Part shown: positions 1-28,544 of the stretch, piece by piece
How positions within the stretch are numbered: position 1 is the stretch's first letter
Layout: every line of letters begins with the position of its first letter
Source: Alphaproteobacteria bacterium
GTDB lineage: Bacteria > Pseudomonadota > Alphaproteobacteria > CACIAM-22H2
DNA: 37,874 bases
NCBI GenBank assembly: GCA_044359885.1
Contig: JBIKLI010000003.1
Location: 1 to 37,874 of the forward strand
Direction: 5' to 3'
Translations under genes and position numbers: made by a program
Notes under the pieces: model-generated
The model's database searches: none
What the model saw: the letters and a program-made list of their open reading frames with translations, nothing else
What the model was told of the DNA's origin: nothing

Positions 1-1811
1 CTGCCCACGAGAAGCTGCGCGATGAACGCAGCGGGGATGCCGAAGATGCCGACCGAGATGTTGTTGATGCCCCAGATATAGGCGACGTCGCGACCACGGA
101 TCTTCACGATCTGGATGTCGCCGAGCCAGCTGAAGGCCTCCTTGACCCACAGCCCGTGGAACTCGGTCGTGTAGAGGAAGAACATGCAGACGAAAAAGCC
201 CGCAGCCACCCCCGCCACGCCCGACGCGTTGCCGCATCGTTTCCACCAGATTCCGAGCACCAGACCGGCGAACAGGCCGGACGCGGCGATCGAGAAGGCC
301 CAGGACACCAGGAACAGGATGTCCGCGCCGAGCGATCCCGCCGTGTAGGCGGCGATCAGGGCGACGACCATCAGCAGCGCGCGGCTGATGACGAGGCGAC
401 GCTTGGTGTCGGCGTTCGGGTCGATCATCTTGTAGTAGACGTCGTGGCTGAGCGCGTTGGCGATCGCGAGCAGCAGGCCGTCGGCGGTCGACAGCGCGGC
501 CGCGAGGCCGCCCGCCGCCACCAGGCCCGAGATCACGTAGGGCAGACCGGCGATCTCCGGCGTCGCGAGCACGATCGCATCCGCGTGGATGCGGAACTCG
601 CCCAGCTGGAGAATGCCGTCGCCGTTGCCGGTGACGCCGCGGCAGAGCGGGTATTGCTGCACCGCGTTCGCGGCGTCGCAGGCGCCGACCAGCGCAAGAC
701 CCGGACGTCCCCAGCTCTTGACCCATTCCGGCAGATTGGCGATCGGCGTGTTGATCAGCCCCTGATAGACCTCCAGCTTCGCGAAGGCGGCATAGGCCGG
801 CGCCGTGAAGTAGAGCAGGAAGATGAAGAACAGGCTCCACGCCACCGACTCGCGCGCCTGCCGCACCGACGGGGTGGTGAAGTAGCGCATGAGGATGTGC
901 GGGAGCGACGCCGTGCCGACCATCAGGCAGAGGATCAGCGCGAAGTAGTTCCACATCGCGACTGCGCTGTACTGCCCCTGGGCGTTAACGAAGGCCGCCG
1001 TGTGCGGCTGCGCCACCTTCAGGGTCTGCTCGAGCGCCGCGATCTTCTCCAGCGCCGTGCCGTACATCAGCTGCGGGATCGGCACGCCCGTGACCTGGAA
1101 GGACATGACGACCGCGGGGATCAGATAGGCGATGATCAGGATGATGTACTGCGCCACCTGGGTCCAGGTGACCGCCTTCATCCCGCCCAGCAGCGAGCAC
1201 ACCAGGATGCCGATCAGACCGACGAAGCAGGCGACCTGGAACGAGATCCCGAGGAAGCGCGAGGTGATGATCCCCACGCCCACGATCTGCGCCACGACAT
1301 AGACGAAGGACGCGGCGATCAGCACGATCACGGCCAGCATGCGGGCGGCGTGGCCGCCGTAGCGGGCGCCGAAGAAGTCCGGCACGGTGAACTGGCCGAA
1401 CTTCCGCAGATACGGAGCCATCAGGATCGAGACCAGCACGTAGCCGCCGGTCCAGCCCAGGATGAAGGCAAGACCGCTATAGCCGCCGAAATAGAGCGAT
1501 CCGGCCATGCCGATGAAGGAGGCCGCGCTCATCCAGTCGGACCCGGTCGCCATGCCGTTGTAGAAGGCTGGCACCGAGCGTCCGGCGACGTAGTATTCCG
1601 AGACCTCGGCCGTGCGCGAGAGCACGCCGATCAGCGCATAGACGCCGATGGTCATGAAGATGAAGAGATAACCGAGCCAGCGGTCCGGCACGCCCATCCA
1701 TTCCAGGATGCCGAGCACGACCACGAAGCCGAGGAAGCCCCCCGTGTAGAGGGCGTAGATGCGGCCGAGGTTCTGAAGGAACCCGGAGCCGCCGACCGAA
1801 TAGCCAGCCAT
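1..1811 (-). CDS. Sodium:solute symporter, ActP/VC_2705-like (probable acetate/monocarboxylate permease); 3' end runs off the window
   Basis: Absent from the ORF track because it has no stop in the window. Translated by hand from ATG 1811: MAGYSVGGSGFLQNLGRIYALYTGG...EYYVAGRSVPAFYNGMATGSDWMSAASFIGMAG, later GLVAAGGLAAALSTADGLLLAIANALSHD. These are SLC5 hallmarks. Lies directly downstream of a DUF4212 gene. Confidence 0.9.
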   Translation of the reverse strand, partial: MAGYSVGGSGFLQNLGRIYALYTGGFLGFVVVLGILEWMGVPDRWLGYLFIFMTIGVYALIGVLSRTAEVSEYYVAGRSVPAFYNGMATGSDWMSAASFIGMAGSLYFGGYSGLAFILGWTGGYVLVSILMAPYLRKFGQFTVPDFFGARYGGHAARMLAVIVLIAASFVYVVAQIVGVGIITSRFLGISFQVACFVGLIGILVCSLLGGMKAVTWTQVAQYIILIIAYLIPAVVMSFQVTGVPIPQLMYGTALEKIAALEQTLKVAQPHTAAFVNAQGQYSAVAMWNYFALILCLMVGTASLPHILMRYFTTPSVRQARESVAWSLFFIFLLYFTAPAYAAFAKLEVYQGLINTPIANLPEWVKSWGRPGLALVGACDAANAVQQYPLCRGVTGNGDGILQLGEFRIHADAIVLATPEIAGLPYVISGLVAAGGLAAALSTADGLLLAIANALSHDVYYKMIDPNADTKRRLVISRALLMVVALIAAYTAGSLGADILFLVSWAFSIAASGLFAGLVLGIWWKRCGNASGVAGVAAGFFVCMFFLYTTEFHGLWVKEAFSWLGDIQIVKIRGRDVAYIWGINNISVGIFGIPAAFIAQLLVG

Positions 1812-1821
1812 GTCTATGTCC

Positions 1822-2088
1822 TCACTCGTCCGAGACGCCGAATTCGTCGTCGATCTTGTTCTGCGCCTTCGTGTTCCAGACGCAGAGCGCGACGAACGCG
1901 ATCAGCGAGCCCTGGGCCGCCATGTAGTAGCCCAGCGGGAACCCGATGATCTGGATCTTGTTCAGCGCCGGGGCGAAGAAATGAATCGCGAAGCTGAAGA
2001 AGAACCAGAGAGCGAGAATCGTCCACATCAGCGAGGACGTTCGGCTCCAGTAGGATTGCATCTGCTCCGGGGTTAGTTTGGCTGCCAT
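1822..2088 (-). CDS. DUF4212 small membrane protein, symporter-associated small subunit
   Basis: 88 aa with two hydrophobic segments and the motif GFPLGYYMAAQGS. GAGGGAG RBS upstream; 10 bp from the symporter start. Confidence 0.88.
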   Translation of the reverse strand: MAAKLTPEQMQSYWSRTSSLMWTILALWFFFSFAIHFFAPALNKIQIIGFPLGYYMAAQGSLIAFVALCVWNTKAQNKIDDEFGVSDE

Positions 2089-2179
2089 GCCGTGTCTCCC
2101 TCATCACCTGCGGATCTGCGGCGTCCGCTACCGGGCGGCCGACCTTGGTGGTTTTCACCTGGACAACGGCCACATTGAC

Positions 2180-2213
2180 GCGACGAAAAGAGTTAAGATT
2201 CGTCGCACGAATC
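2180..2213. promoter_or_regulatory. Overlapping inverted repeats in the divergent promoter region
   Basis: GCGACGAA-N11-TTCGTCGC (2180-2206) overlaps GATTCGT-cgc-ACGAATC (2197-2213). Function is inferred only. Confidence 0.35.
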
Positions 2214-2297
2214 GGCACATAGCACTGAAAGCCTTGGGGCGGCAATAGGGTATGCTCACCGCCTCTGGCATCCTTCGAGACTGGCTGGGACCCCGAC

Positions 2298-2903
2298 ATG
2301 CTGACCCGCGCCTACCGGTACTTCTTCCCGCCGCCGATCCGCGACCGGGCGGCGCTGGGCAGCTTCATGTCCGGCGAGGCCGCCTATCTCGCCCAGCGCT
2401 CGACCTATGAATTCACCCGCAACACCCTGGCGTGGCACGGTCAGGCCGCTTTCGGCGACAGGGAATTCAACGATGTCTTCCGGATCTGCCGCTGGGAGGC
2501 CTTCGGCGCCGTCCTGTCGGGGTTCAGCCTCCTCGCCTTCGCCCGCCTGGCGCCCGGGCCGGGCGGACGCCGGGGCGATCTGGAAGCGGCCATGGTCAAG
2601 TTCTATGGTGACCTGCTCGGCGCCTACGAGACCCCGCGCCATCGGACCGACTGGGCCGACGAGCTGGCGGCCCTGGCCGAGCGCCTGCATGTCCTGCCGC
2701 CGGGCGTCGTTCCGTCCGCTGCCGAGGCGACACGGATCGCCGCGGCCAAGGTCTACAAGACCCTGCCGGCCCGGGCCGGCAATCCGCGCGAAGAGAAGGA
2801 TGTGATCGCCAACGCCCTTCGATTCGGCACGATCGGGTTCGGCGAGCGGCTGGACCGGCGGCTGCGGCCCGCCGAGACGACGGCCTCGCTGCTGGCCGGT
2901 TAG
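2298..2903 (+). CDS. Hypothetical protein, probably co-transcribed with the DUF294 gene
   Basis: 201-aa ORF with normal composition and GC-ending codons; 6 bp gap to the next gene. No catalytic motif recognised. Confidence 0.75.
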   Translation: MLTRAYRYFFPPPIRDRAALGSFMSGEAAYLAQRSTYEFTRNTLAWHGQAAFGDREFNDVFRICRWEAFGAVLSGFSLLAFARLAPGPGGRRGDLEAAMVKFYGDLLGAYETPRHRTDWADELAALAERLHVLPPGVVPSAAEATRIAAAKVYKTLPARAGNPREEKDVIANALRFGTIGFGERLDRRLRPAETTASLLAG

Positions 2904-2909
2904 GCCCCC

Positions 2910-4356
2910 TTGGCCCCGCCCCGGTCCCGGATCGAGGTCTTCGGCCGGCGCGCCCGCGACGCGATGACACCGCGCGTGCACCGCGCCGGCCCCGAGACGC
3001 CGGTCGGGGAGGCGATCGCCGGCCTCGCGGCCACCGACGCCTCGGCCGTGGTGGTGGTGGATGGCGCGGGGCGGCTGATCGGGATCGTCACCGAGCACGA
3101 CATCGCCCGGCGGGTCGCGCTGCGGCTGCCGCCCGAGGCGCCGGTCGAGCGGGCCATGACCGCGCCGGTGAAGTCGGTCGGTGCCGACGACCTGCTCTAT
3201 CGCGCCATCGGGCGGATGCGCCGCGAGAAGCTTCGTCACATGCCGGTCGTCGATGGCCAGGGCCGCCCGGTCGGGATGCTGGACCTGCATGCCGCGCTGG
3301 CCGCGGCGGCCGAACGGATCGTCGACCAGATCGACCGGCTGACCCGCGACGCCTCGATCGACGGCTGGACGGAGGTCAAGCGCGCCCAGGCCGAACTGGC
3401 CCAGGACCTGCTGGACGACAATCTCCCTGCTCCGGAGATCCAGGCGCTGGTCACCGAGATCAATCTCGACATCCATCGCCGCCTGCTGGAGGCGGCGATC
3501 GAGCGGCTGCGCGCCGAGGGCTGGGGCGAGATGCCGGTTCCCATGACGCTGCTGATCATGGGGTCCGGCGGGCGCGGCGAGAACTTCCTGTTCCCCGACC
3601 AGGACAACGGGTTCATCCTCGCCGACTATCCCGACGCCGAGCACGCCCGCATCGACGCCTGGTTCATCGCCCTGGCCGAGCGACTGACCGCCGGGCTGGA
3701 CCGCGTCGGCTTCCCGTTCTGCAGGGGCGGCGTGATGGCCACCAACCCGCTGTGGCGCAAGACCGCCAGCCAGTGGCGCGACCAGATCTGGCTCTGGGGC
3801 GAGCGGCGCAGCCCGGTCGCGGTGCTGTTCGCCGACATCTTCATGGATTTCGCCCCGGCCTGGGGGGATGCGGACGCGGCCGCGGCGCTGCGCACCGAAG
3901 TGACGCGGATGCTGGCGCGATTTCCCGCGCTGCTGCGGGCGATGGCGGAGGACGAGACCGGGCGCGGCGTGGCCCTGAGCCTGTTCGGCAACCTCAAGGT
4001 CGAGAACGACGCCGCCCATCCCGGCCGCACCGACCTCAAGCTGCACGGCACGCTGCCGCTGGTCGGCGCGACCCGGCTCTACGCGCTGCGCGCCGGCCTG
4101 GCGGAGACCGGGACGCTCGCGCGTCTGGCGGCGCTGGCCCGTCTGGGCGCCGTCGGGGCCGACGACGCCGAGGCGCTGGCGCAGGCCTACGCGACGGTCA
4201 CCTTCGTCATGCTGCGCCAGCAGCTCGCCGATTTCCGCGCCGGACAGCCTGTCGGCAACCATGTCGATCCCGATGCCCTGACCCGGCTCGAGCGCGATCG
4301 GCTGGTGGACGCGCTCAAGGCGATCGAGCGCCTGCGCAAGCGTGCGCGGGCTGATT

Positions 4357-4376
<20 letters not shown>
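2910..4376 (+). CDS. CBS-pair + DUF294/DUF294_C putative nucleotidyltransferase (GlnD/GlnE-like pol-beta fold)
   Basis: CBS motifs (GRLIGIVTEHDI, RHMPVVDGQGRPVGML), NTase motif GSGGRGE...DQDNG, CRGGVMATNPLW and DLKLHG. TTG start is uncertain. Confidence 0.9.
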
Positions 4377-7085
<2,709 letters not shown>

Positions 7086-7089
<4 letters not shown>

Positions 7090-7280
7090 GGCGGGTCGCC
7101 GCCGCCGCGCGCGGCCAGGGCGAGCAGCGCGATCACGCCCCCCCAGGCGGCGAAGACGTAGAGCAGCAGCGCCGGGACGCCGGACACCAGCACCGGACGC
7201 TGGAAGAAGCCGATCGCCACCGGACTGAACAGCAGGGACGCCAGCAGCAGCAGCCCGATCAGCCTTTCGCCGCGCCGCAT
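7086..7280 (-). CDS. Small two-TM membrane protein coupled to the SLC5 kinase
   Basis: 64 aa, hydrophobic, with GVP...YVF..W. Its stop overlaps the kinase ATG. Confidence 0.75.
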
Positions 7281-7292
7281 CGCCGTCTCCGG

Positions 7293-9434
7293 CTAGAAGT
7301 CGCGCGCCCGCGCGCGCAGTTCGAAGGCGATCCGGGCGGATCGCAGCAGCTGATCCAGCGTGTCGACGCCGCGCTGGCCCAGCAGGTCGATCAGTCCCGC
7401 GAACACCGCCGCCGTCGCCATCGCGTCGCCCAGCGCCGTGTGCCGGCCCGCGATCGGCACGCCGATCCGGGCGGCGATCGCGTCGAGATCGTGGTCCTGG
7501 ATGTCGGGATGCAGGAAGGCCGAGATCAGCAGCGTGTCGAGCACGGGCATGTCGAAGGCGACACCGCTCTCGGCCTGCTTCATGCGCAGGAAGGTCATGT
7601 CGAAGGCGGCGTTGTGGGCGACCAGGACGGCGCCCTCGCAGAAGGCGCGGAACTGGGGCAGCACCACGGCCGCCGGCGGCGCATCGGCCACCATCGCGTC
7701 GGTGATGCCATGGAAACGGATCGAGCCGGGCGGGATCGGGCGCCCCGGATTGACCAGCCGCGCGAAGGTCTCGCCGGTCAGGATCCGGCCGTTGACCACG
7801 CGCACCGCGCCGATCGACACGATCTCGTCGCCGGCCGAGGGCTTGAGGCCGGTGGTCTCGGTGTCGAACACGACGAATTCCAGGTGCCGGAGCGGACGTT
7901 CCCCGTCGCGCGCCGCGGCGGCGGGCAGATCGAAATCGTAGAATTCCGGGCGCGCGGGCAGGCCCGCCCGCGTCTTGGCCATGCGCCGCTCGGTCTCGGC
8001 CGCCGCGGGCACCGGGATGCGCAGCCGCGAACGACCGTCGTCCAGCGCCTGGCTCCATGCGGCGCTGCCATGGCGCTGCAGAACGTCGCCCAGCGTGGCG
8101 GCGCCCAGCGCGCCGGCCAGTTCCTCGGCCAGCCATGAATCGATGCGCGAGGACGGCACCGGTGCGCCGCGCCAGACCAGATCGACATAGGCCGTGCGCG
8201 CGCCCACCGATGCCTCGACGTCGAGTGCCGCGACCGAGGCGGCCGCCGCGACCCGGGATGCAAGACGCGCCAGCGCGACGACCAGCGACTGGCTGTCGGC
8301 ATGCAGCCAGCGCGGCAGCCCGACCGGGGTGAGGGCCGGTCCGCCGCCTTCCGCGACCTGGCGCGCGAGCAGCCGGAACAGGTCGATCGACAGCACGTCG
8401 GCCAGCGGCCAGTGCCCGCCCTTGAGTTCGCGCGCCGACCGGTCGAACCCGTCCAGGCAGGCGATCATCGCGGCGCTCTCGCGCTGCACCACGGCGTCGA
8501 AGGCCGCGCGCTGCGCCGCCGGCATGCCCGGGAAGGCGGCCAGGGTCTCGGCCGCGGCGCCGAGATTGGCGAGCGGCCGGCGCAGCCCCTCGGCCAGTTC
8601 GCGCATCGCGCGGTCGCGCGCGGCGAGCGCCGCGACCTCGCGGGTGGCGTCGGTCAGGGTCAGGACATAGCCGCTCGGCGCGCCGTCCTCGCCGCGCGTC
8701 AGGGCGATGCGCCCGAAGAGCAGACGGGAGGCGTCCGCGGTGGCACAGACCAGCGGGCAGAATTCCGCCGCCTCGGACGGCGGACCGCCGTCGTGGAGCA
8801 GCCGCTCCAGCGCGTGCAGCACGGGCTCGCGCGCCACGACGTTGAAGAGCGATCGGCCGAGGCCGACCTCGCCGGCGTCGCGCAGCAGGCCGAGCGCCGC
8901 CTGGTTGTAGAGCTGCACCCGGTGCTCGAGCGTGCAGATCAGCACGCCTTCCGCGAGATCGCGCAGGATCGTCTCCAGCCGGCCGCGCTGCTCGGCCGCC
9001 CCGCGCGTCGCCGCGGCGATCGCGGCAGCGTGGTCGCGCCGTCCGGCGGCCAGCGCCGATGCCAGCGCAGCGACCGCTTCCGGCACGGGCGCGAGCCAGG
9101 GATGGGCGCCGGGCGTCACGGCCCGATCGGCGCCCGCCTCGGCCGCGAAGCGTGTCTCCGCCGCCAGCCGCCGCAACGGCAGGACGACGCGCACGCGCAG
9201 CACCGCCGCCGCGACCACGAAGCAGGCCAGCGCCGCGCCGGCGATCGCGACGCCGGCCTCCGCCGGGGTCAGCGCGGCGAGCCCGCGCCCGGACTCGGCC
9301 GGCGTGGCGGCACCGGCGACGACGAGAAACGCGCCGGCCGCCGCACCGGTCGCCGCCGCCGCGCCGAGCGCCAGCCAGAGCGGCCGCGCGCTGTGACGGC
9401 GCGCCGGACGCCAGGCGCCGCCGGCCTCAGCCAC
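7293..9434 (-). CDS. Membrane-anchored PAS / degenerate kinase-like protein with a C-terminal DEDDh (DnaQ-like) 3'-5' exonuclease domain
   Basis: Two N-terminal hydrophobic segments; PAS-like LAEGVLICTLEHRVQLYNQAA; ExoI FDTETTG, ExoII AHNAAFD and ExoIII HTALGDA. GTG start overlaps the response regulator stop. Confidence 0.88.
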   Translation of the reverse strand: MAEAGGAWRPARRHSARPLWLALGAAAATGAAAGAFLVVAGAATPAESGRGLAALTPAEAGVAIAGAALACFVVAAAVLRVRVVLPLRRLAAETRFAAEAGADRAVTPGAHPWLAPVPEAVAALASALAAGRRDHAAAIAAATRGAAEQRGRLETILRDLAEGVLICTLEHRVQLYNQAALGLLRDAGEVGLGRSLFNVVAREPVLHALERLLHDGGPPSEAAEFCPLVCATADASRLLFGRIALTRGEDGAPSGYVLTLTDATREVAALAARDRAMRELAEGLRRPLANLGAAAETLAAFPGMPAAQRAAFDAVVQRESAAMIACLDGFDRSARELKGGHWPLADVLSIDLFRLLARQVAEGGGPALTPVGLPRWLHADSQSLVVALARLASRVAAAASVAALDVEASVGARTAYVDLVWRGAPVPSSRIDSWLAEELAGALGAATLGDVLQRHGSAAWSQALDDGRSRLRIPVPAAAETERRMAKTRAGLPARPEFYDFDLPAAAARDGERPLRHLEFVVFDTETTGLKPSAGDEIVSIGAVRVVNGRILTGETFARLVNPGRPIPPGSIRFHGITDAMVADAPPAAVVLPQFRAFCEGAVLVAHNAAFDMTFLRMKQAESGVAFDMPVLDTLLISAFLHPDIQDHDLDAIAARIGVPIAGRHTALGDAMATAAVFAGLIDLLGQRGVDTLDQLLRSARIAFELRARARDF

Positions 9435-9804
9435 GATCCGCCGCGAGCAGCGCCTGCACGCGTTCGACGAGCGCGCGGGTCGAGAACGGCTTGGTGACGT
9501 AGTCGTCCGCGCCCAGCGCCAGGCCCTTCTCGCGCTCGACCTCGCGCGAGCGCGCCGTCAGCATGACGATGCGCGTGCGCGCGCAGGCCGGGTCGGCGCG
9601 GATCGCCTGGCAGACGTCATACCCGTCGCGCCCGGGCATCATGACGTCGAGCAGGACCAGATCGGGCGGTCGCGCGGCGATCTCGGCCAGGGCCGCGTCG
9701 CCGTCGCGGGCCACGCGCACGTCGTAGCCGGCCTGACGCATCAGGAATTCGAGCGACAGGACGATGTTCGGTTCGTCGTCGACGACCAGCACGGATGCCG
9801 CCAT
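9427..9804 (-). CDS. Single-domain (receiver-only) response regulator
   Basis: 125 aa from MAASVLVVDDE, with LLDVMMPG (phospho-Asp), MLTA and TKPF. GGAGGG RBS. No output domain. Confidence 0.93.
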   Translation of the reverse strand: MAASVLVVDDEPNIVLSLEFLMRQAGYDVRVARDGDAALAEIAARPPDLVLLDVMMPGRDGYDVCQAIRADPACARTRIVMLTARSREVEREKGLALGADDYVTKPFSTRALVERVQALLAADRG

Positions 9805-9898: not shown

Positions 9899-12100
<2,202 letters not shown>

Positions 12101-12162
12101 GCCGCAAATATGCATCGCCGCGCCCGGGATGCGAGTCCCCGGCGCGATCCGGCGCCGTGGGG

Positions 12163-12178
12163 ATTGACCGGCGTCAAT
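12163..12178. promoter_or_regulatory. Fnr/FixK-type box (TTGAC-N4-GTCAA)
   Basis: ATTGAC-CGGC-GTCAAT has perfectly complementary arms and is centred about 70 bp upstream of the ATG at 12240. Matches the TTGAY-N4-RTCAA consensus. Confidence 0.7.
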
Positions 12179-12239
12179 GCCCCGCCGCGCCGTCCCTGGC
12201 GAAGTCGGGGTCGACGCAGCGGCTGGCGGGGTGACGAAA

Positions 12240-12758
12240 ATGAAGACGCGCGGTATCGGCAGGACGGGACGGCGGCACGACGAGCGCAAGGCGCATCTGA
12301 TCGCCGAGGAACGCCACGACCCCTACAAGGCGCGCGCCAAGCATGCCGGGCCTTGCGTCTGCCCTGGCTGCGGGGCCGTCTTCGCGGCAGGCCGATGGCG
12401 CTGGGACGATCACGCGACGGGGGTCGAGGCGCGCGAGACCTGCCCGGCATGCCATCGCATCGCCGACAGCTTCCCCGCAGGCCGGATCACGATGGCCGGC
12501 GCTTTCCTCGCCGCCCATCGCGACGAGATCGTGGCGCTGGTTCGCAACACCGAGGCGCGCGAGCGGCGCGAACATCCGCTGCAGCGGATCATGGCCATCG
12601 GCGAGGGCGAGCGCGACGGCGAGATGGTGATCACCACCACCGACCTGCACCTGCCGCGGCGCATCGGCCACGCCCTGGTCGACGCCTACAAGGGCGACCT
12701 GCGCACCCATTACGACGAGGCCGGCCATTTCGTGCGCGTCGACTGGCGGCGGGACTGA
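12240..12758 (+). CDS. BCAM0308-family protein (CxxC...CxxC, putative zinc-binding)
   Basis: [36 protein letters not shown] and [18 protein letters not shown] are typical of this family. Confidence 0.82.
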
Positions 12759-12787: not shown

Positions 12788-15700
12788 CTATCCCCAGATC
12801 TCGACCGGGACCTGCAGACGCGCCGACAGCGACGCGAAATAGGCCGCATCCAGGGTCTCGATGCCGCTGCCGCCCGGTGTCCAGCTGCCGTCGACGTCGC
12901 CCTTGAGCACCGCCACGAAGTTCTTGCCCTCGGCGACGGCAAGGTCGGCGACGACCGCCTGCCGGTCGTAGGTCACATTGCCGGCATCGAGCGTCACCCG
13001 GCCCTGCGCCTCGTCCCAGAAATCCTCGTCCTCGCGCACGAAGATCCAGTCCTGCGCCGGCGCATCCGGGCGCCGGACCACCATCTTCAGGATCCCGAGC
13101 GCATCCTGGGCATCCACGCTTCCGTCGCCGTTCACGTCCGCGCCGATGAACTGGTACGGAGTCACAAGCGCCGGCTGATCCGGTCCGACGCCATCGGGAT
13201 CGTGGTTCGGATTGCGCCCCACCGCGATCTTCAGCGCCGCGAGCGCGTCCGCGGCGTCGATCGAGTCGCCCGAATCGGCCGTCCCGCGCCGCAGCGACAG
13301 CGCGTAGACGTCTTCGGACAGGTCGCTCAGCGAATATCGCCCGTCGCCGGGCGTCGTCTGTCTCGTCGCCTGGGTCGCGAAGCGCGGCGCCTGCGCACCG
13401 CCCAGTTGCGCCGTCGATACCTCCACCTCCGTCATGCCGGCCCCGGGCGCCAGATCGATCGTCGCCGTCCCCAGAGCGACGGCGCCGGAGAGCGTGGCCG
13501 GGCCGGTCGCATCCAGATCCAGACGCCCCGGAGACGGCCTGACACTCAGCGTCCAGCCATCGAGCGCCGCGCCCGGCGTCCAGGACACCGGCGCCGCGCC
13601 ACCGACGCGCAGGTCGAAAGCCAGAGACGAAACCGCGGCACCGGCATTCGCCCACACCTCGAAACGCGCATCGCCATTCGCATCGAACCCCAGCCCGCGG
13701 ATCTCGATCGGCGATGTCGCCCCCGCCGGCCTGCCGTCCCCGGCAGCCGTCACCGACACATCGGGCAGCAGCGCGCGGTTCTTCCAGTGATAGGCCATGC
13801 CGGAAATGCCGAACGGTGCCGCAGCCCACGTCGCACCGACCGAGAAGCTCGCCACGTCGTTGCCCGCGACGTCCTGCAGCACATCGCTCGTCTGATCGCC
13901 CGCCGGATCGGCGTAGGCGACGACCGAACCGGCGCCGGACGCCACCGCGCCGCCCAGGCTCAGCGTCGCGGTTCCACCCGCCAGCGTCACCCCGGTCACC
14001 GCGATCACCTGGCCGTCCGCATTCACGGCGAAACCGCCGGGCGTGACGCCGCCGGCCGCAAGCACCTCGTCGAAGGTCAACGTCACCTGCGTGCCGGCGG
14101 CATTGAACCGCGCGCCATTCGCCTGCAGCTTGGGCGCGCGGTCATCGACGTCGTCGTTCCGGATCGTCGCGGATGCGCTGGCCGTGCCCAGCGTCGCCCC
14201 TGTCGCGCCGGACAGGGTCAGGGTGAAGCCCTCGTCCGGCTCGATCGTCGTGTCGCCGGCGATATTCACGGCAACGGTCTTCGACGTCTCGCCCGCCGCG
14301 AAGCTGATGGTCCCATGCGGCAGCGCATTGCCGACGAAATCCCCCGCGCTCGCCGGATCGCTGCCGCTGCCGGCGACCGACCAGACGCCGCTCGCTGGCC
14401 GGGACGCATCGCCGCTGCGCGCCACCTGAAACACGACCGTCGCGGCCCCCTGATCTCCCTCCGCGACCGGCGAGGCGGGCCCGCCCACGGACAATTGGGT
14501 ATCCGACACGCTGTCGTCGTTCACGATCGTGGCGATCGCCGACGCCGCGGCCAGGATCGTTCCCGGCGACGGGGCCGAGAGCGTCAGGGCGAAGGCCTCG
14601 TCGGCCTCGATCGCGCCGTCGCCGGCCACGGTCACGACGATCGGCCGTGCCGTCTCGCCCGCGGCGAACGTGATCGTTCCCGAGGGCAGGAATCCCGCGG
14701 CGAAATCGGTCGCGCTCGCAGGGTTCGGGCCGTTGCCGGTCACCGACCAGACCGCGCTCGACACACCGGAGATGTCCCCGGCGCGCGTGATCGAAAAGAC
14801 GAAAGCGGTATCCTCGCCATCGCCCTCGGCCGTGATGCCCGGGGGGGCCTCGACCGACAGCGTGAACGCCGCCGCGACGACCCGATCGGCGAAGCGGATC
14901 ATTTCGACGCCGCTCAGCGTGTCGGTTCCCGACGACCCGCTCAGCGCGCGCAGCGTGAGCGCGCCCGTCGGCTCGAGCCGGATGTCGTAGGCGGACCGCA
15001 CCAGCGGGTAGAGCGCGCTGTCGGCGCCGTCGCCCCCGTCGAGACGATCGTCGCCCGCGCCGCCGTCCAGCATGTCGTCGCCGCGACCGCCGGACAGGAC
15101 GTTGTCGCCGGCGTTTCCCGTCAGGGTGTCGGCGAAGCTGCCACCGCGCAGGTTCTCGATGCCGGCGAAGCGGTCGGCGCCGTCGGCGCCCGACGCGCTT
15201 CCGCCGCCGTCGGCGCCCAGCACCGCGGTCACCGGGCCGCCGGCATGCGCGTATTCGACCGTGTCGATGCCGGCGCCGCCGTCGACCAGGTCGTCGCCCC
15301 TGCCGCCGGCGAGAACATCGTCGCCGGCCTCGCCGAAGATCTCGTCGTCGCCGTCGCCCGCATCGATCCAGTCGGCACCGGGACCGCCGCGGAGCGCTTC
15401 GCCATAGGCGCTGCCGACGATCAGGTCGTCGCCGGACAGGCCCTGCACCGATTGCGCGGCCGCGAAGCCGAAATCCCGGTTGGCGACCGTCGCGCCGGCG
15501 ACGACCTCGACCGCATGCGAAACCGGCAGGAACTGCTTCATGCCGAGGATCGCCTCCGCCATGGCGAGCATGTCGATGCGATGGAATGTCAGGCCGGTAT
15601 TCGCGACGTTGTCATTCTCGTCGTCCCCGTCGACGATCGCGTCCCCGGTGCTCTTGAGCAGGCTTCGGACCTCGTCGAAATTGAGCCGGCGGCCCAGTTC

Positions 15701-18700
15701 GCGCTCGGACAGCTGCTGCGCGAGCGCGATCATCCCGGCGACCTGCGGCGACGCCATGCTGGTCCCGGACAGCACGGCATGGCCGCCGCCCAGATAGGCG
15801 GCATCGATGAACACGCCCGGCGCGAAGATGTCCGACTCGGTGTCGTCGCGCTGCGAGAAGACGGCGATCGCGTCGGTCGTGCCAGTCTGGCGATTGCCAT
15901 AGGTGCCGCCGCGCGGCCAAACGGCGCCCACGGACAGCGAATAGGGATCCGCCGACGGATAGGCGACGCCCTGGTTTCCGGCATAGGAATTGCCGGACGC
16001 CGAAACGACGACCACGCCGCTGTTGCTCAGCGCCTTGAACTGGCTCGACAGCGGGCCTGCCACGGGCGCGGCGTGAAATTCCTGGGAACCGAGCGAGAGA
16101 TTGACGGCGACGACGTTGTACTGCCTGGCGTTGGCGACGACCCAGTTCGCGGCCTCGACGATGTCGCCATAGCTGGCCGCCCCCGATCCGTCGGGAAAGA
16201 CCTTCAGGACGATCAGGTTCGCTCCCGGCGCGACGCCGGGATAGGTCGCGTCGCCCGAGGCGACGATCCCGGCCACATGCGTGCCATGGCCGGCGCCATC
16301 GGCGGCGCTGGCGTCGTTGGCGCCGAAGAAGTCGTACTGGAAGACGATGCGATCGGCGATCCCGTCGCCATCGCCATCGGGGCCGAAATGAGGGTGGTCG
16401 AGGTCGATCCCCGTGTCGATGACGACGACGGAATATCCCGCCCCGTCGATGCCGGCGAAACGCGGATCGGCGCGGAAGGCGGCGATGTTCGTGGCGGTGC
16501 CGAGATTCGCATAGGTCGGCGGCCCGCCCGATTGCAGATCGAGAGTGCCGGCGGTCGTCACCGCCCCGGCGGTCGCCTGGTTGGTGACGATCGTCGCGCT
16601 GGCGTCGCTCGCGGTCGGGAAGGTCGGAACCCAGCCGGGGGCGACCCGCGCGACGATCGCATGCGGACCCGGCGCGAGGCCGTCGAGGCGATAGGCCCCC
16701 GATGCGTCGGTCCGGGCTTCGGCCTCGCCGCTGTCGAGCCTGCCGTTGCGGTTCGCGTCGTCGAACACCGTCCAGTTGGCAAGCGACGTCTCGGCCGGAT
16801 CGAGGATCTTGTTCCGGTTGAGGTCGTGCCACAGCCTGCCGCCGACGCTGCCGGTCGTCGGGGCATCGTTGTCCGAAATCGTGAAGGCCAGCCCGCTGGC
16901 GGGGAGGTTGCTGTAGGGACCGTCGGCCGCGATCGTCGTCGCCCGCAGCGTCCCGCCATGCGTCCGTTCGTCGGCGACGTCGTCGATCGCGAGGACCGTC
17001 AGGGCCTGCGGCACGTTCCAGTTCGCCGGACCGAAGGCCAGCGACGGCACGGCGGGGAACAATTGGTCGCCCCCGTCGAAGACAACCGTCACGACCGAGG
17101 ACGGCGCGGCCGCGAGCGAGACCTGGACCGCCGCGCCGCCACCCCCTTCGGCCAGAAGGGTCGTCGCCGGCGCCATGACGACCTTCGGTGGATTGGCCAC
17201 CGCGACGTTGCGGTCGAGGAAAGCGAGCATCTCGACATTCGTCGCGGCGACCGTCTGGCCAGCCTGGATCGTGCCGGCCTTGCCGGTGACGATCAACTGG
17301 TCGCGCGCCGCCGACGGGAAGTCGATGACGAAGTCGTCATGTCGGCCGAAGAAGGCCAACGTGTCCTGGCCGGTGCCGCCGTCGACGACATCGCTGCCGC
17401 CGCGGCCATCGACGATGTCGTCGCCCGTCGTGCCGGCCAGGACGTCCGCGACGGGCGCACCGAAGATCTTGTTGATGTCGTTCGTCTCCAGCGCGCGGGT
17501 CTGCGACTGGTTGAAGGCCAGGGTCTCGATGCCGATCGCGGTGATCGTATGGCCGGCATATTCATGCGCGGCGTCGCCGCCCTGGATGCGGGTGATCCCT
17601 GCCACGGTCTGGACGACGAACTGCTCGCGGGCGCCGAACAGCGCCAGCGTATCGTGTCCAGCCCCGCCCTCGACAAGATCGCTTCCACCCAGCGGGTCGA
17701 TGAGGTCGTTGCCGGCGGTGCCTGAGACGACCTCCGACTGCGACGTCCCGAAAACCGGCGTCGCTCCGGCCGCGCCGAGATTCTCGGTGCCAGACCAGGT
17801 CCGGATCTTCTCGACGTTCCAGACCCGCGAGACGGTGAAGGCGTGTTCGCCGGCGGCATAGTTGCCGCGGATGGCCGTGATCCCGCCGATCGCGTTGACC
17901 GAGAGATTGTCGGCATGCGTGCGGAAGAGAACCGTATCGGTGCCGTCGCCACCATCGATCTGGTCATGACCACCGGCGCCATAGACGAGGTCGGCGCCCG
18001 TGGTGCCCTGGATCCTGTCCGCGCCGGGTGTCCCGACGATCGCACCGGACGGGATCCCGTCGTCCAGCGACGCGCCTGCCGACAGCCGGTATTCGCCGTC
18101 GCTATGGAGATGGCCGGCCGCGCTCACGGAGAGGAAATACGTCCCCGGCGCGGCGGCCTCGACCTCGAAGGCGACGTCGCCGCCGGTGTCGCGTGTCGCG
18201 AGCGTGACGCCCAGGGCGTCCTGCACCTCCAGATGGAAGTAGTTGGCGTAGGTGCTGTCGGTCGGGCCGTCGAATTCGATGGCCAGTTTCCCGCCGGAGG
18301 CCAAGGTCACGACATATCGGTCGTCGTCGCCGAGCCAGGAGAGCTGGCCGCGAATGCTGTCGCCGACCGCCAGGACATCGGCCGTGGCGTTGCTGTCGTT
18401 CGTCTCGCTCTCGCGGGCGATCGTGCTGGCGGTCGCGGTCGCCGTCAGGGCGTATTGGCGGGCGTCATGCGCGTAGAACCCGGCCGTGACCGCGATGAAA
18501 TGGCCGCCGGGAACGGGCGCCGCGACCGTGAAGCCGGTGTCGCCGAAGACGGCGCGGCTCGCCAGGAGATTGCCGAGCTCGTCGAAGACCCAGATGTTGA
18601 AATGTTCAAGAACTTCGTTTTCGACCGGTGAATCGAACGCGATCGCCAGGTCGGCCGCCGCCGCCGTGTCGAGGCGGTACCAGTCCACGTCGTCCCAGTT

Positions 18701-20457: not shown

Positions 20458-20635
20458 CCTTGCGGCTCCGGAGGGGGGCGGGCGGAGATGCGGATATCGC
20501 CGATCGCGCGACATGTTTCCAGCGGCCTCCCCGGCCCCTGGCGGCGGCCCGCCGGATCCTTGAGTCCGCCGCGGCACGAAGACTAGGGTGCGACCCCTGG
20601 TGCTTCCCGGCCCGTCGCGGCCGCAACCGGAAGGC

Positions 20636-22321
20636 ATGATGGCCGTTTCATCACGAGTTCTGCCGGCGAGATCGGCCGGGGCGCTGGCGCCCTGGCGCCT
20701 GGGATGCTGGGCGATCGCGATCCTGGTGGCCGCGCCCATCCTGGGGGTCGTCGCCAGCGTGGGCGATGCCGACGGCGCCGTGCTGCGCCATCTGGCCGCG
20801 ACCACGCTGCCGGGGATCCTCGCCAACACGCTCGGGCTCGCGCTGGTCGTCGCGATCGGCACGGGTGCGATCGGCATCGCCACTGCATGGCTGGTCACGA
20901 TGTGCCGCTTCGCGGGGTCGCGGAGCATGGAATGGGCACTGCTGCTGCCAATGGCGATGCCGGCCTACATCGTCGGCTACGCCTATACCGATCTGCTCGC
21001 CTTCGCGGGACCGGTCCAGACCGCGCTGCGCGAGGCGACCGGGTGGCGGCGCGGCGACTACTGGTTTCCCGAACTGCAATCGGTCGGCGGAGCCGGCACG
21101 ATGTTCGTGCTGGTGCTCTACCCCTATGTCTACCTGATGGCGCGCGCGGCGTTCCTGGAGCAGTCGGTCTGCGTCCTGGAAGCCAGCCGCATGCTGGGCG
21201 CGCGGCCGTGGCGCAGCTTCCTCTCCGTCGCGCTGCCGCTCGCGCGGCCGGCGGTCGCCGCGGGGGTGGCTCTGGCGCTGATGGAGACGCTCGCGGATTT
21301 CGGGACGGTCCAGTATTTCGGGATCCAGACCTTCACCACCGCGATCTACCGGACCTGGTACGGCATGGGCGAGCGCGGCGCGGCCGCGCAGCTCGCCTGC
21401 ATGCTGCTGGCGGTCGTCCTGGTGCTGCTGGCGCTGGAGCGCGCCTCGCGCGGCCGCAGCCGTTACCACCATGCCTCCCGGCGCCGGCGCGAGATCCGCC
21501 CCTTCGTCCTCGTCGGCTGGCGCGCCGTCGCCGCCTGGATCGCCTGCGCCGTGCCGGTCGCGCTCGGCTTCGCCGTGCCCGTCGGCGTCCTTGCACGCTT
21601 CCACGCGATCGCCGGCGAGGCCGCCTGGACGGCGCAGTTCGGCGCGCTCGCCCTGAACTCGCTGGTCGTGGCCGGTCTCGCCGCCCTCCTCGCCGCAGCC
21701 GCCGCGCTGGTGCTCGGGTACGGGCTGCGCCGCGCGCGCGATCGCTGGACGCTCGGGGCGATCCGGCTCGCGACCATGGGCTACGCGATCCCCGGGACGG
21801 TGATCGCGGTCGGCGTGGTGATCTGGCTGGGCCGTTTCGACAACACGCTCGATGCCTGGGCCCGCGCCGTCCTCGGCGTCTCGACGGGATTGCTGCTGTC
21901 CGGGTCGATCGTCGCCCTGCTCTTCGCCCATCTGGTCCGCTTCCTGCCGGTGGCGACCAGCGCGATCGAATCGGGCCTCGGACGGATCACGGCCAGCATG
22001 GACGATGCGGCCCGCACATTGGGCGCGCGCCCCGCCCGGATCCTCGTCGACGTCCACGCGCCGATGATGCGCGCTTCGGTGCTGACCGCGGCCACGCTGG
22101 TCTTCGTCGACGTGCTCAAGGAACTGCCCGCGACCCTGCTGGTCAGGCCTTTCAACTTCGACACCCTGGCGGTGCATGTCTACGCGCTGGCCTCCGACGA
22201 GCGGCTGGCCGAAGCATCGACCTCCGCCCTGGCGATCGTGCTGGTCGGGCTCGCCCCGGTTGCGATCCTCAGCGCCATGATCCGCCGTTCGCGCGTCGCC
22301 CTGGATGCGTCCAAACGATGA
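20636..22321 (+). CDS. Fe3+ ABC transporter permease (FbpB/SfuB-like)
   Basis: Duplicated permease halves with LLPMAMPAYIVGYAY, EASRMLG, ETLADFGTV, DAARTLG and KELPATLLVRPFNFDTLA. Confidence 0.9.
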   Translation: MMAVSSRVLPARSAGALAPWRLGCWAIAILVAAPILGVVASVGDADGAVLRHLAATTLPGILANTLGLALVVAIGTGAIGIATAWLVTMCRFAGSRSMEWALLLPMAMPAYIVGYAYTDLLAFAGPVQTALREATGWRRGDYWFPELQSVGGAGTMFVLVLYPYVYLMARAAFLEQSVCVLEASRMLGARPWRSFLSVALPLARPAVAAGVALALMETLADFGTVQYFGIQTFTTAIYRTWYGMGERGAAAQLACMLLAVVLVLLALERASRGRSRYHHASRRRREIRPFVLVGWRAVAAWIACAVPVALGFAVPVGVLARFHAIAGEAAWTAQFGALALNSLVVAGLAALLAAAAALVLGYGLRRARDRWTLGAIRLATMGYAIPGTVIAVGVVIWLGRFDNTLDAWARAVLGVSTGLLLSGSIVALLFAHLVRFLPVATSAIESGLGRITASMDDAARTLGARPARILVDVHAPMMRASVLTAATLVFVDVLKELPATLLVRPFNFDTLAVHVYALASDERLAEASTSALAIVLVGLAPVAILSAMIRRSRVALDASKR

Positions 22322-23490: not shown

Positions 23491-23519
23491 ACGCGACACA
23501 GGTCGCCAAGGAGGACCCC

Positions 23520-28531: not shown

Positions 28532-28544
28532 CGTGATCCCCCCG

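Follow-up and report, generated by a model that had tools for sequence, protein, structure and literature searches.

The window analysed here, 37,874 nucleotides of an alphaproteobacterial contig, carries near its start a compact set of transport and signalling genes (Table 1). An overlapping minus-strand operon for the receiver, the exonuclease, the 64-aa protein and the histidine kinase converges on the plus-strand genes for the 201-aa protein and the DUF294 protein. By their coordinates, the receiver and exonuclease genes overlap by 8 nt, the 64-aa ORF follows the exonuclease gene after 12 nt, the stop codon of this ORF overlaps the kinase start by 4 nt (ATGA), and the DUF294 and kinase genes share 20 nt at their 3' ends. 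GC3 is 0.88-0.93 across all genes, including the 201-aa (0.89) and 64-aa (0.92) ORFs and the DUF4212 gene (0.88). Every gene named for the region 3-9804 in an earlier note, made from the sequence alone, was found in its place, and the region encodes no DNA-binding regulator, as that note had stated.

Table 1. Genes at the start of the window.
Feature	Position	Strand	Basis and remarks
Na+/solute symporter, VC_2705 family, large subunit	3..1811	-	Pfam SSF 2e-52; C-terminus lost at contig end
DUF4212 small membrane symporter subunit, 88 aa	1822..2088	-	Pfam DUF4212 1.9e-27
201-aa protein, no assigned family	2298..2903	+	directly upstream of DUF294 gene
CBS-CBS-DUF294-DUF294_C nucleotidyltransferase, 488 aa	2910..4376	+	Pfam; TTG start uncertain
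SLC5-like/STAC-like/HisKA/HATPase_c histidine kinase, 910 aa	4357..7089	-	Pfam and hhalign
64-aa protein, two hydrophobic stretches	7086..7280	-	ORF
TM-TM/HAMP-like, PAS, DHp-like, CA-like pseudokinase with DEDDh exonuclease, 713 aa	7293..9434	-	Pfam RNase_T, model
Stand-alone receiver (REC), 125 aa	9427..9804	-	Response_reg 3.6e-30
uvrB	9899-12289		next gene after REC

In the DUF294 protein, Pfam finds two CBS domains (4.7e-22), DUF294 (3.2e-38) and DUF294_C (2.5e-41), with no cNMP-binding domain. The GS..R.E...DxD motif corresponds to G218, S219, R222, E224, D230, Q231 and D232; all of these except E224 are invariant in 41 DUF294 sequences, and at least 90% of the sequences keep E224, as they do D313. 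The likeness to protein nucleotidyltransferases that had been proposed from the sequence is borne out by the structure model (pLDDT 91), whose top matches outside the CBS domains are GlnE (1v4a, Z 27.1; 3k7d, Z 26.4) and DrrA (6yx5, Z 25.1); a Foldseek search with the same model also gave a protein AMP-transferase fold of the GlnE/DrrA type. All of the best non-CBS matches are enzymes that add AMP to proteins or remove it. To our knowledge, neither a DUF294 protein nor its partner exonuclease has been assigned a biochemical activity. The roles of both were called unclear as of September 2026 in a recent preprint (bioRxiv 10.64898/2026.09.07.749794).

The 713-aa protein matches RNase_T (5.3e-38) and, weakly, PAS. 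Its model (pLDDT 80) resolves the domain limits, and Foldseek matched the N-terminal part to WalK, VicK, YF1 and HK853 and the C-terminal part to the exonucleases PolC, epsilon and DinG. Its kinase-like part aligns with the core of the neighbouring kinase (hhalign probability 98.7%, E 3.5e-16), and the earlier description of it as a pseudokinase holds: Glu282 stands at the phospho-acceptor position, where none of 22 homologues has a His, the N-box Asn is replaced by Arg and the G1 Asp by Trp. The DEDDh residues (D524, E526, D612, H665 and D670) are invariant in the 22 homologues. The nearest relatives of the exonuclease domain, in sequence as in fold, are DNA proofreading domains (PolC-type 2p1j, 7.7e-28; epsilon, ~1e-19, rmsd ~2 A).

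The 910-aa kinase (HisKA 7.6e-19, HATPase_c 9.3e-29) is not a hybrid kinase. Its transporter domain goes unseen by Pfam even at E 10; hhalign aligns the N-terminal 560 aa with an SSF-permease profile (96.9%, E 1.5e-10, 420 columns). Residues 563-570 form a conserved RFLGP.RA, compatible with the STAC motif LGPx(x)A, and His685 lies within THELRTPL. The translated receiver has D9, D10, D53, T81 and K103. Among 78 hits, the median tail past the end of the receiver query is 7 residues, with two outliers, one having a stop codon (L054) and the other a tail of 52 (L043). A DNA-binding partner for the kinase may in addition be encoded at another place in the genome. The 64-aa protein was detected by tblastn in 13 of 80 exonuclease-centred loci, mostly just 5' of the kinase gene.

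The permease had been described as ActP-like, and this has to be corrected: it belongs to the VC_2705 family of symporters, scoring 671.7 bits against TIGR03648 of NCBIfam (cut-off 320.75). ActP proper was rejected (181.6 bits, where its model requires 750), and the NCBIfam model for MctC also scored under its cut-off. SSF permeases recur in 38/80 exonuclease-centred and 37/56 DUF294-centred loci. The 201-aa protein has zero matches in Pfam or NCBIfam, and its homologues (61 clusters) are all hypothetical or without a name. A homologue is present in 20 of 24 genomes of the same family and in 1 of 16 from other families. In the relatives' loci its gene comes after a divergent DUF4212 gene in 9/9 and is followed by DUF294 in 6/9, two of the others ending within the gene and one having no DUF294; it was found in 0/80 of the wider exonuclease-centred loci. 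It is a lineage-specific gene, either accessory or possibly encoding a target.

We sampled 121 genomes evenly over the phylum, 48 of which have a match to PF03445 (DUF294). Around 57 such matches outside the present genome, 56 loci were fetched; 52 of them have an RNase_T-type ORF within ~9 kb, mostly adjacent, and in one of the four that do not, the DUF294 gene lies 456 nt from a contig end. By our own arithmetic from paralogue counts (2-10 per genome of 3.6-6.2 Mb), linkage by chance is expected in ~1-4%. In two loci (L116 and L137), RNase_T, two CBS domains, DUF294 and DUF294_C are fused in a single ORF, and one genome (G103) has four DUF294 genes, every one of them next to an exonuclease of its own. 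Viewed from the exonuclease, DUF294 is present in 59 of the 80 loci, and in 33 of the 42 that have 5 kb or more of sequence to either side. The nine full-flank loci in which it is absent nearby carry REC and/or kinase, or neither. Where an exonuclease locus has no DUF294, the genome encodes it elsewhere in 5/5 cases, and only 1 of 10 unlinked DUF294 places has an exonuclease-like sequence within 1.5 kb. The pseudokinase module occurs in 21 of the 121 genomes, and 19 of the 20 other than our own also have DUF294; one genome, in 310 contigs, has the module and no DUF294 match. The co-occurrence put forward as a check in the earlier note is thus strongly positive (52/56, 33/42 and 19/20), and the two genes are not distributed independently.

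When ORFs of 136 loci were clustered in an unbiased way, the sole recurrent families were the exonuclease, DUF294, SLC5 kinase, SSF permease, REC, Acs, DUF485 and DUF4212. The commonest arrangement in the phylum-wide sample has a short form of the exonuclease (29 of the 52 exonuclease-bearing DUF294 loci), and the 23 DUF294 proteins that have no cNMP-binding domain include 16 with a long exonuclease and two fusions. In the exonuclease tree, 29 of 31 short DUF294-linked sequences cluster weakly (77/94), with the long, fused and DnaQ-like paralogues in an unresolved polytomy. A single clade of all DUF294-linked exonucleases was not recovered in this tree; therefore, the partner of DUF294 may have been recruited more than once.

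DUF294 and the exonuclease very probably serve a common pathway, and we infer a conserved two-enzyme module with a functional link to the uptake of small carboxylates coupled to Na+. REC is present in 59 of the 80 exonuclease-centred loci, and in 58 of these 59 its gene immediately precedes that of the exonuclease on the same strand; an SLC5 kinase is present in 51/80. The exonuclease is probably an output of this kinase/REC pair. An enzyme pair plugged into a transporter-like kinase suggests that a reversible chemical tag controls the uptake of small organic acids. With this in mind, one may propose the CBS-DUF294 protein as the writer and the TM-PAS-pseudokinase-DEDDh protein as the eraser and signalling output. 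With its CBS pair the writer would sense the adenylate state, and it would move an NMP onto a target hydroxyl, the likeliest target being a protein of uptake or activation, for instance the SSF permease or a partner of it. The DEDDh domain would cleave this phosphodiester, freeing 5'-NMP. The SLC5/STAC transceptor kinase would phosphorylate the stand-alone receiver, which would then dock on the membrane-anchored pseudokinase at its His-less DHp, in a reversed signalling of the DivL/DivK style, and the docking would switch the fused exonuclease. In this lineage the eraser would be built into the signalling pathway, in contrast to the transcriptional control of the CrbS/R-driven Pseudomonas operon.

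We hold this writer/eraser cycle on carboxylate uptake, with an eraser gated by phosphorylated REC, only tentatively, since its chemistry, target, direction of regulation and REC-pseudokinase docking are all things that we infer. It draws on the linkage and the two fusions, on the GlnE/DrrA fold matches together with two intact and invariant active sites, on the receiver upstream, the SLC5 kinase and the His-less pseudokinase, and on the differing pyruvate phenotypes of pp_0353 and pp_0354 in Pseudomonas putida with the precedent of RNase Z and SelO, and on the short list of recurrent neighbour families. Against it count the likeness of the exonuclease domain to proofreading domains, a linkage that is not universal, the exonuclease tree, and the mutant phenotypes of the later preprint. 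Whether the two enzymes are opposed, one adding to a shared substrate what the other removes, is in our judgement evenly balanced; that the shared substrate is a protein is conceivable, and somewhat doubtful.

The DUF294/exonuclease operon, the idea of nucleotidylation and the pyruvate phenotype are already in print. The Pseudomonas operon is a target of CrbS/R (MxtR/ErdR) (PMC5715377, PMC9927547), and nucleotidylation of proteins as a means of regulation by DUF294 orthologues was proposed for Pflu5625 (PMC5715377) and PP_0354 (bioRxiv 10.64898/2026.09.07.749794). In P. putida, growth on pyruvate was reported to be impaired in the pp_0353 (exonuclease) mutant and in the actP-I mutant and not in the pp_0354 (DUF294) mutant (PMC9927547), a pattern that would fit an inhibitory mark locked in place. 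In the later preprint, both the PP_0353 and PP_0354 mutants were moderately inhibited on propionate and pyruvate (bioRxiv 10.64898/2026.09.07.749794), which blurs a clean eraser-only phenotype.

The substrate could instead be a nucleic acid, with DUF294 extending a specific RNA 3' end or making a short, possibly protein-primed, oligonucleotide signal, and the DEDDh enzyme trimming or degrading it 3'-5', so that the pair sets the level of a signal controlling carboxylate uptake. DEDDh enzymes usually work on nucleic-acid 3' ends, this domain is nearest to exonucleases of the PolC/epsilon/DinG type, no protein target is known, and the tight pairing and fusions would suit a polymerase with a trimming nuclease as well. 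However, GlnE and DrrA, the top non-CBS structural matches, act on proteins, and the best 50 matches listed include no RNA-tailing or cGAS/OAS-type enzyme, although CBS domains fill that list and it excludes nothing. We consider a nucleic-acid substrate unlikely. Less probable still is that the enzymes share a pathway without being opposed, DUF294 modifying a protein and the exonuclease separately degrading particular mRNAs or small RNAs that belong to carbon metabolism, here under the SLC5 kinase and REC. Such RNA degradation was speculated by the P. putida authors, whose mutants in the two genes differ in phenotype (PMC9927547), and would agree with the nine full-flank loci that have no DUF294 nearby; but the single-ORF fusions and the one-to-one pairs in G103 are better explained by one shared substrate, and an mRNA nuclease anchored in the membrane would be unusual. 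Finally, despite the adjoining uvrB and the resemblance to epsilon and PolC, an ordinary repair or proofreading exonuclease placed here by chance, with no role in carboxylate signalling, is highly improbable, given its fusion to transmembrane helices, PAS and a pseudokinase, its operon with REC and SLC5 kinase in most of the 80 loci, its linkage to DUF294, the absence of UvrB from the 14 neighbour clusters identified among the 32 that are most widespread (the other 18 all have a median length of at most 233 aa), and the presence in the genome of exonuclease I and, at a contig edge, a dnaQ fragment.

Returning to the writer/eraser cycle, its closest known relative is the PP_0354/PP_0353 (Pflu5625) pair, in which the same two enzyme families are adjacent and tied to an SLC5/STAC kinase, SSF permeases and the use of acetate and pyruvate. 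The Pseudomonas exonuclease is soluble and ~230 aa long, whereas here it is fused to a TM-PAS-pseudokinase within a kinase operon that has a REC-only protein; we found no description in the literature of such a fusion inside a two-component operon. The Pseudomonas DUF294 protein has a cNMP-binding domain, absent here, and the Pseudomonas operon is coupled to the kinase by transcription, with a LuxR-type regulator in between, in contrast to the stand-alone REC of this locus, where there is no LuxR-type partner.

Compared with GlnE/GlnD and DrrA(SidM)/SidD, the DUF294 nucleotidyltransferase and C-terminal helical domains can be superposed on DrrA and on each of the two GlnE domains (Z 25-27, 300-323 residues aligned), the G-S...D-x-D motif is intact and the transferase carries a sensor domain. 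The eraser of GlnD is an HD domain; none of the erasers in these systems is a DEDDh nuclease, as proposed here, and we know of no DEDDh enzyme that takes an NMP off a protein. The erasers of protein nucleotidylylation described in PMC12663964 use a second nucleotidyltransferase domain or a PP2C-like fold, and the same source reports RNase Z as the deAMPylase for SelO, an RNA-metabolism nuclease acting as an eraser of protein AMPylation. The folds differ, with a pseudokinase writer and an RNase Z-type endoribonuclease eraser there and a pol-beta-type writer and a DEDDh nuclease here.

With the SLC5/STAC kinases CrbS, CbrA and RpuS, the kinase shares the SLC5-like membrane domain, the LGPx(x)A-type linker motif, the HisKA/HATPase core and an adjacent monocarboxylate-type symporter. 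Unlike CrbS, for which a hybrid architecture is described (PMC5715377), the present kinase has no fused receiver and is partnered by the stand-alone REC and then the pseudokinase-exonuclease. In Caulobacter, DivL hands its signal on to another kinase, whereas the pseudokinase here is fused to an enzyme domain. DivL is itself a His-less kinase fold that has been proposed to read the phosphorylation of a single-domain response regulator, DivK (PMC4211667, bioRxiv 10.1101/812529), and by analogy the His-less fold here may read the single-domain REC. The exonuclease domain shares sequence, fold and all five DEDDh residues with the proofreading domains of DnaQ and PolC, but it is carried on a membrane sensor-pseudokinase, and it is paired in the genome with a GlnE-like transferase in place of a polymerase.

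The locus is built as the earlier note had read it, with every gene in its place in both the gene map and the Pfam assignments. In this genome of ~70% G+C, eight genes lie within positions 3-9804 of the window, which is the entire 37,874-bp contig, and all carry a strong coding signature with a GC3 of 0.88-0.93. From the stand-alone receiver gene (REC) to the histidine kinase gene, successive genes of the minus-strand operon overlap by 8 nt, are spaced by 12 nt and overlap again in an ATGA, and the 3' ends of this operon and of the DUF294 gene converge with an overlap of 20 nt. The locus is known only up to the left contig end, which falls inside the symporter gene. The label "ActP-like" given to this permease has to be dropped. 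The protein scores 671.7 bits against NCBIfam TIGR03648, the VC_2705 family (cut-off 320.75), and only 181.6 and 148.3 bits against the NCBIfam ActP models (cut-offs 750 and 1099), and the partner encoded upstream is DUF4212, not the DUF485 protein YjcH.

Features of the locus and of the remainder of the window
Feature	Position	Strand	Remark
Na+/solute symporter, VC_2705 family	3-1811	-	Pfam SSF 2e-52; cut by contig end
DUF4212 small subunit of symporter	1822-2088	-	Pfam DUF4212 1.9e-27
201-aa protein, no family	2298-2903	+	divergent from symporter genes
CBS-CBS-DUF294-DUF294_C protein, 488 aa	2910-4376	+	Pfam
Histidine kinase, 910 aa	4357-7089	-	HisKA and HATPase_c
Hydrophobic protein, 64 aa	7086-7280	-	operon member
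713-aa protein with C-terminal RNase_T/DEDDh domain	7293-9434	-	Pfam PF00929
Stand-alone receiver (REC), 125 aa	9427-9804	-	Response_reg
uvrB	9899-12289		just upstream of minus-strand operon
2358-aa ORF	12788-19864	-	RTX calcium-binding repeats; subtilase, Calx-beta, PPC and SdrD-B-like domains
Phosphonate-type uptake genes	20588-26933	+	two periplasmic binding proteins, two ABC permease genes
Candidate catabolic genes	27761-37183		class II aldolase, beta-lactamase-fold protein, AtuA, MFS transporter, two PhyH-type dioxygenases

The 713-aa protein joins a kinase-like N-terminus to an exonuclease. Its C-terminal domain matches PF00929 with 131.6 bits over aa 521-678 (cut-off 24), and the DEDDh residues D524, E526, D612, H665 and D670 are invariant in an alignment of 22 sequences. 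D524/E526 correspond to the Exo I motif (DxE), D612 to Exo II (D) and H665/D670 to Exo III (Hx4D), and the domain is predicted to be an active member of the DEDDh (DnaQ-like) 3'-5' exonuclease class. In an AlphaFold model built on 22 homologues (mean pLDDT 80), two hydrophobic N-terminal helices and a long helical linker are followed by a PAS domain (163-262), a two-helix DHp domain (264-338), an alpha/beta CA-like domain (345-477) and the exonuclease (519-712). Foldseek matches the N-terminal part to the sensor kinases WalK (3e-18), VicK, YF1, ThkA and HK853, and the C-terminal part to the exonucleases PolC, epsilon, DinG and ExoX.

Pfam detects neither HisKA nor HATPase_c in this protein; in the profile-profile comparison by hhalign, its N-terminus aligns with the core of the neighbouring true kinase at 98.7% probability (E 3.5e-16), in agreement with a DHp-CA fold. 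The phospho-acceptor His of the kinase is aligned there with Glu282, a column in which none of the 22 sequences has His (E in 15, D in 2, Q in 2, V in 2 and A in 1). The ATP-binding boxes are degenerate as well, the N-box Asn corresponding to Arg and the Asp of the G1 box (DxGxG) to an invariant Trp421. Since these losses occur together with invariant DEDDh residues, the description of the protein as a pseudokinase fused to an intact exonuclease is correct. Seventeen of the 22 homologues have Glu or Asp at position 282, an acidic residue that may mimic a phosphorylated or otherwise charged state. Intermediate exonuclease forms of ~480 aa, in which the kinase-like N-terminus survives in part (HMM 105-111 bits) and which are partnered by DUF294 proteins with a cNMP-binding domain, were seen in two fetched loci (L085:6433-7881 and L089:6503-7930).

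The second enzyme, the CBS-CBS-DUF294 protein, matches DUF294 with 131.2 bits (cut-off 21) and DUF294_C with 141.3 bits (cut-off 22.5). Its GS..R.E...DxD motif is indeed intact: G218, S219, R222, D230, Q231 and D232 are invariant among 41 sequences, and at least 90% of them share E224 and the third carboxylate, D313. A sequence search for a solved structure of the DUF294 part found none. Compared with ~48,000 chains, the DUF294 model (pLDDT 91) has its best non-CBS match in the N-terminal domain of GlnE (Z 27.1, 323 residues, 3.3 A), followed by the C-terminal domain of GlnE (Z 26.4) and Legionella DrrA (Z 25.1), and Foldseek agrees. All three add AMP to proteins or take AMP off. In the model, DUF294 has the fold of the protein adenylyltransferases, as its supposed likeness to GlnE-type enzymes had it, and NMP transfer is a predicted activity.

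The association of the two enzymes was examined from either side. The pseudokinase-exonuclease family comprises 89 clusters at 90% identity, with relatives in at least 562 of 600 candidate stretches of species-representative genomes; of clusters at 50% identity, the N-terminal 500 aa alone retrieve 218 with a limit of E<=1e-30 and 635 with E<=1e-10. We took the 80 best loci centred on the exonuclease, whose records come from Alpha-, Beta- and Gammaproteobacteria, Nitrospirota, Chloroflexota, Acidobacteriota, Actinomycetota and Desulfobacterales, and identified neighbours by tblastn with the proteins of the window. Forty-two of these loci have at least 5 kb on either side and form a full-flank subset.

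Neighbours of the pseudokinase-exonuclease gene in the 80 best loci
Neighbour	All loci	Full-flank loci
REC	59/80 (58 of 59 directly upstream, same strand)	35/42
SLC5 kinase	51/80	34/42
DUF294	59/80	33/42
SSF permease	38/80	23/42
DUF4212	18/80	11/42
64-aa protein	13/80	10/42
201-aa protein	0/80	0/42

A second set was centred on DUF294. Out of 121 genomes sampled evenly across the phylum, 48 have a PF03445 match (E<=1e-10), and ~9 kb fetched on each side of all 57 non-own matches gave 56 loci, which were scanned with an HMM built from the exonuclease domain. Of the 56, 52 contain an exonuclease ORF, in nearly every case as the next gene; within the ~9 kb per side, the HMM found none at L088, L096, L114 and L099, in the last of which the contig ends 456 nt from the gene. 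At 2-10 paralogues per genome of 3.6-6.2 Mb, our own arithmetic puts adjacency by chance within 18 kb at ~1-4%. The pseudokinase module occurs in 21 of the 121 genomes, and DUF294 is also encoded in 19 of the 20 non-own ones, the exception (G106) being an assembly of 310 contigs. Independent distribution of the two proteins, named in the earlier note as evidence against its proposal, is clearly not what is observed. Where an exonuclease locus has no DUF294 gene within 10 kb, DUF294 is encoded elsewhere in all five such genomes, and an exonuclease-like sequence lies within 1.5 kb of only one of the ten unlinked DUF294 places.

The exonucleases of the DUF294 loci are of three types: 21 pseudokinase forms, 29 short stand-alone forms and two fusions. 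The fusions, from two genomes of the window's class, are single ORFs in the order RNase_T, CBS, CBS, DUF294, DUF294_C (L116:7810-9963, plus strand, 718 aa; L137:8461-10596, minus strand, 712 aa). A 1154-aa protein (P0162), in which a TM-PAS-pseudokinase and RNase_T run into CBS-CBS-DUF294-DUF294_C, was not counted among them; its RNase_T match covers profile positions 1-107 of 164 with the Exo III motif missing, and it may represent a genuine fusion, the result of a deletion or an error of gene calling. In one genome (G103), which has ten RNase_T paralogues in all, four DUF294 genes (L094, L106, L110 and L113) each stand beside a short exonuclease of their own, which suggests that its four pairs are specific rather than interchangeable. 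In a tree of 66 exonuclease domains, 29 of 31 short DUF294-adjacent ones fall in one weakly supported group (77/94), and the long, fused and DnaQ-like paralogues are left without resolved order. This tree neither demonstrates nor rejects monophyly of all DUF294-linked exonucleases, and gives no proof that the partnership arose only once. A complex prediction for DUF294 and the exonuclease domain returned a score of 0.00, "no answer", which weighs neither way on binding.

Both enzymes of the pair may be subject to regulatory input. A cNMP-binding domain is carried by 34 of the 57 DUF294 proteins; among the 23 that have none, 16 pair with a pseudokinase exonuclease and two are the fusions. Regulatory input seems to move between the putative writer, by way of the cNMP domain, and the putative eraser, by way of two-component control. 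For the latter, the locus encodes REC, which matches Response_reg with 104.8 bits (cut-off 30.2). Its translation has D9, D10, D53, T81 and K103, and with them the usual acidic pocket, phospho-acceptor Asp, Thr and Lys. An apparent REC-exonuclease fusion in L054 was a false alarm, its translation showing a stop codon between the two. The kinase has an intact catalytic core (HisKA 68 bits, HATPase_c 100.5 bits, His685 present). In its 560-aa membrane part Pfam SSF goes undetected even at E 10, and hhalign aligns this part with the SSF permease profile at 96.9% (E 1.5e-10, 420 columns), in agreement with an SLC5-like N-terminal domain. A conserved RFLGP.RA (VGPARA in the window) after the membrane domain fits, in a comparison of motifs only, the STAC linker motif printed as LGPx(x)A (PMC4834066).

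When all coding-like ORFs of the 136 loci were clustered free of labels, the recurrent families were exonuclease (126 loci), DUF294 (106), SLC5 kinase (76), SSF permease (76), REC (72), an acetyl-CoA synthetase-like protein (33), DUF485 (29) and DUF4212 (21); the rest are minor families and unannotated ORFs, some antisense to real genes. The recurrent set places the module in monocarboxylate uptake and activation. The 14 identified of the 32 most widespread clusters include no DNA-binding regulator and no UvrB. Among the conserved genes, the only candidates for a target in cis are those of the kinase, REC, Acs and the permease with its small subunit. A CBS-GGDEF-EAL protein lies near the module in 8 of the 136 loci (for instance L037:18148-20073).

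Neither the 201-aa nor the 64-aa protein has a match in Pfam or NCBIfam, and an Atlas search with the former returned hypothetical-protein clusters only, none with a model. The 201-aa protein is the product of a real gene, which is syntenic within the window's family and evolves faster than its neighbours; it is confined to that family, being present in 20/24 genomes there and in 1/16 from elsewhere. In the divergent intergenic region between it and the DUF4212 gene (2089-2297), a block at ~2220-2250 (TAGCA..CGA ... ACAAT) is kept in most of nine relatives and could be a promoter or operator. A 17-nt inverted repeat farther upstream in the same region (GATTCG-N5-CGAATC) was set aside, not being conserved in these nine relatives. 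Farther into the window, the 2358-aa ORF probably encodes a very large protease-adhesin, secreted or at the cell surface and with no relation to the signalling module, the phosphonate-type genes are apparently a duplicated uptake system, and the last group of genes looks like a small catabolic island.

Counterparts of both enzymes have been studied in Pseudomonas. The DUF294 protein Pflu5625 of P. fluorescens is described as CrbS/R-dependent, with a CrbR-type promoter motif and a mutant without phenotype (PMC5715377). In P. putida, ErdR binds the operon of pp_0354 (DUF294) and pp_0353 (RNase_T exonuclease). Both mutants are unimpaired on acetate; on pyruvate, the one lacking the exonuclease is impaired and the one lacking DUF294 is not, and an actP-I mutant shows the same impairment (PMC9927547). 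The authors of that report speculated on mRNA degradation. A preprint of September 2026 still calls the functions of both proteins unclear, and records moderate inhibition of both mutants on propionate and pyruvate (bioRxiv 10.64898/2026.09.07.749794). In the literature covered, with most subscription journals outside its scope, we found no description of the pseudokinase-exonuclease fusion or of the operon that it shares with REC and an SLC5 kinase, nor of DUF294-exonuclease fusions or a phylum-wide pairing, and searches on STAC or SLC5 domains with an exonuclease gave nothing relevant to this architecture.

From the near-obligate pair, the fusions, the GlnE/DrrA fold, the two intact active sites, the sensor domains on both enzymes and the setting in carboxylate uptake, we infer a cycle in which DUF294 adds a nucleotidyl group and the exonuclease removes it. 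A DEDDh site cleaves a phosphodiester and frees a 5'-NMP, and in a Tyr/Ser/Thr-O-NMP adduct the oxygen of the protein would stand in for the 3'-oxygen of the penultimate nucleotide, which makes de-nucleotidylation by such a site plausible by analogy. RNase Z, a ribonuclease, was recently shown to act as a protein deAMPylase for SelO (PMC12663964). If the mark were inhibitory to uptake and removed by the exonuclease, the P. putida phenotypes would fit, as loss of the eraser gives the same pyruvate defect as loss of ActP-I and loss of the writer is silent; the inhibition of both mutants in the 2026 preprint weakens this pattern.

A serious rival is that the substrate is a nucleic acid or an oligonucleotide. 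Of known domains, those for DNA proofreading come closest to the exonuclease domain; the closest non-CBS folds to the DUF294 model are those of enzymes acting on proteins. An ordinary role in DNA repair, to which the neighbouring uvrB might point, is unlikely, as the domain is membrane-anchored and encoded in an operon with signalling genes, the adjacency to uvrB is not conserved, and the genome also encodes exonuclease I and, at a contig edge, a dnaQ fragment.

The putative eraser of this locus carries a kinase-like module that, judged by its residues, is unable to autophosphorylate, and its gene follows one for a lone receiver with great regularity. In the simplest reading, the SLC5 kinase would phosphorylate REC, and phospho-REC would dock on the degenerate DHp domain and thereby switch the nuclease. 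These two steps, like the nucleotide and the target, are inferred. Taken together, the DEDDh domain would be a protein de-nucleotidylase that removes an NMP set by DUF294 on a membrane component of carboxylate uptake, and in this lineage would be the immediate enzymatic output of a two-component pathway in which phospho-REC, bound to a His-less pseudokinase, switches it; as a whole, we hold this joint reading to be rather unlikely. Were it true, it would provide the first eraser of the DEDDh fold, and transporter flux (sensed by the SLC5 kinase) and energy charge (sensed by the CBS pair) would converge on a single reversible mark, transcription playing no part. The observation of the earlier note is confirmed and its interpretation is supported in part.

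The pair is widespread, its pseudokinase form reaching into records of Nitrospirota, Chloroflexota, Acidobacteriota and Actinomycetota, and in Pseudomonas both genes depend strongly on CrbS/R. Given the fusions and the near-obligate pairing, what was a vague notion of nucleotidylation becomes a concrete two-enzyme hypothesis. The fusion of pseudokinase and exonuclease also suggests a new type of two-component output, in which a stand-alone receiver switches an enzyme, and with it a possible job for many orphan REC-only regulators.

Two known systems bear comparison. In fold and in the loss of the His, the 713-aa protein resembles the reversed-signalling pseudokinase DivL, on which DivK acts (PMC4211667); the proposed docking of REC would be analogous. 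CrbS/CrbR, in contrast, pairs a hybrid kinase, to which a receiver is fused, with a DNA-binding regulator of the LuxR type, and the present locus has neither, since Pfam detects no Response_reg within the 910-aa protein and the sole regulator encoded is the 125-aa REC. The link between SLC5 kinase and the exonuclease/DUF294 pair is apparently transcriptional in one lineage and made by protein fusion in the other, which amounts to a natural experiment. Compared with the Pseudomonas arrangement, the system described here is a protein-level rewiring of a known, biochemically uncharacterised gene pair.
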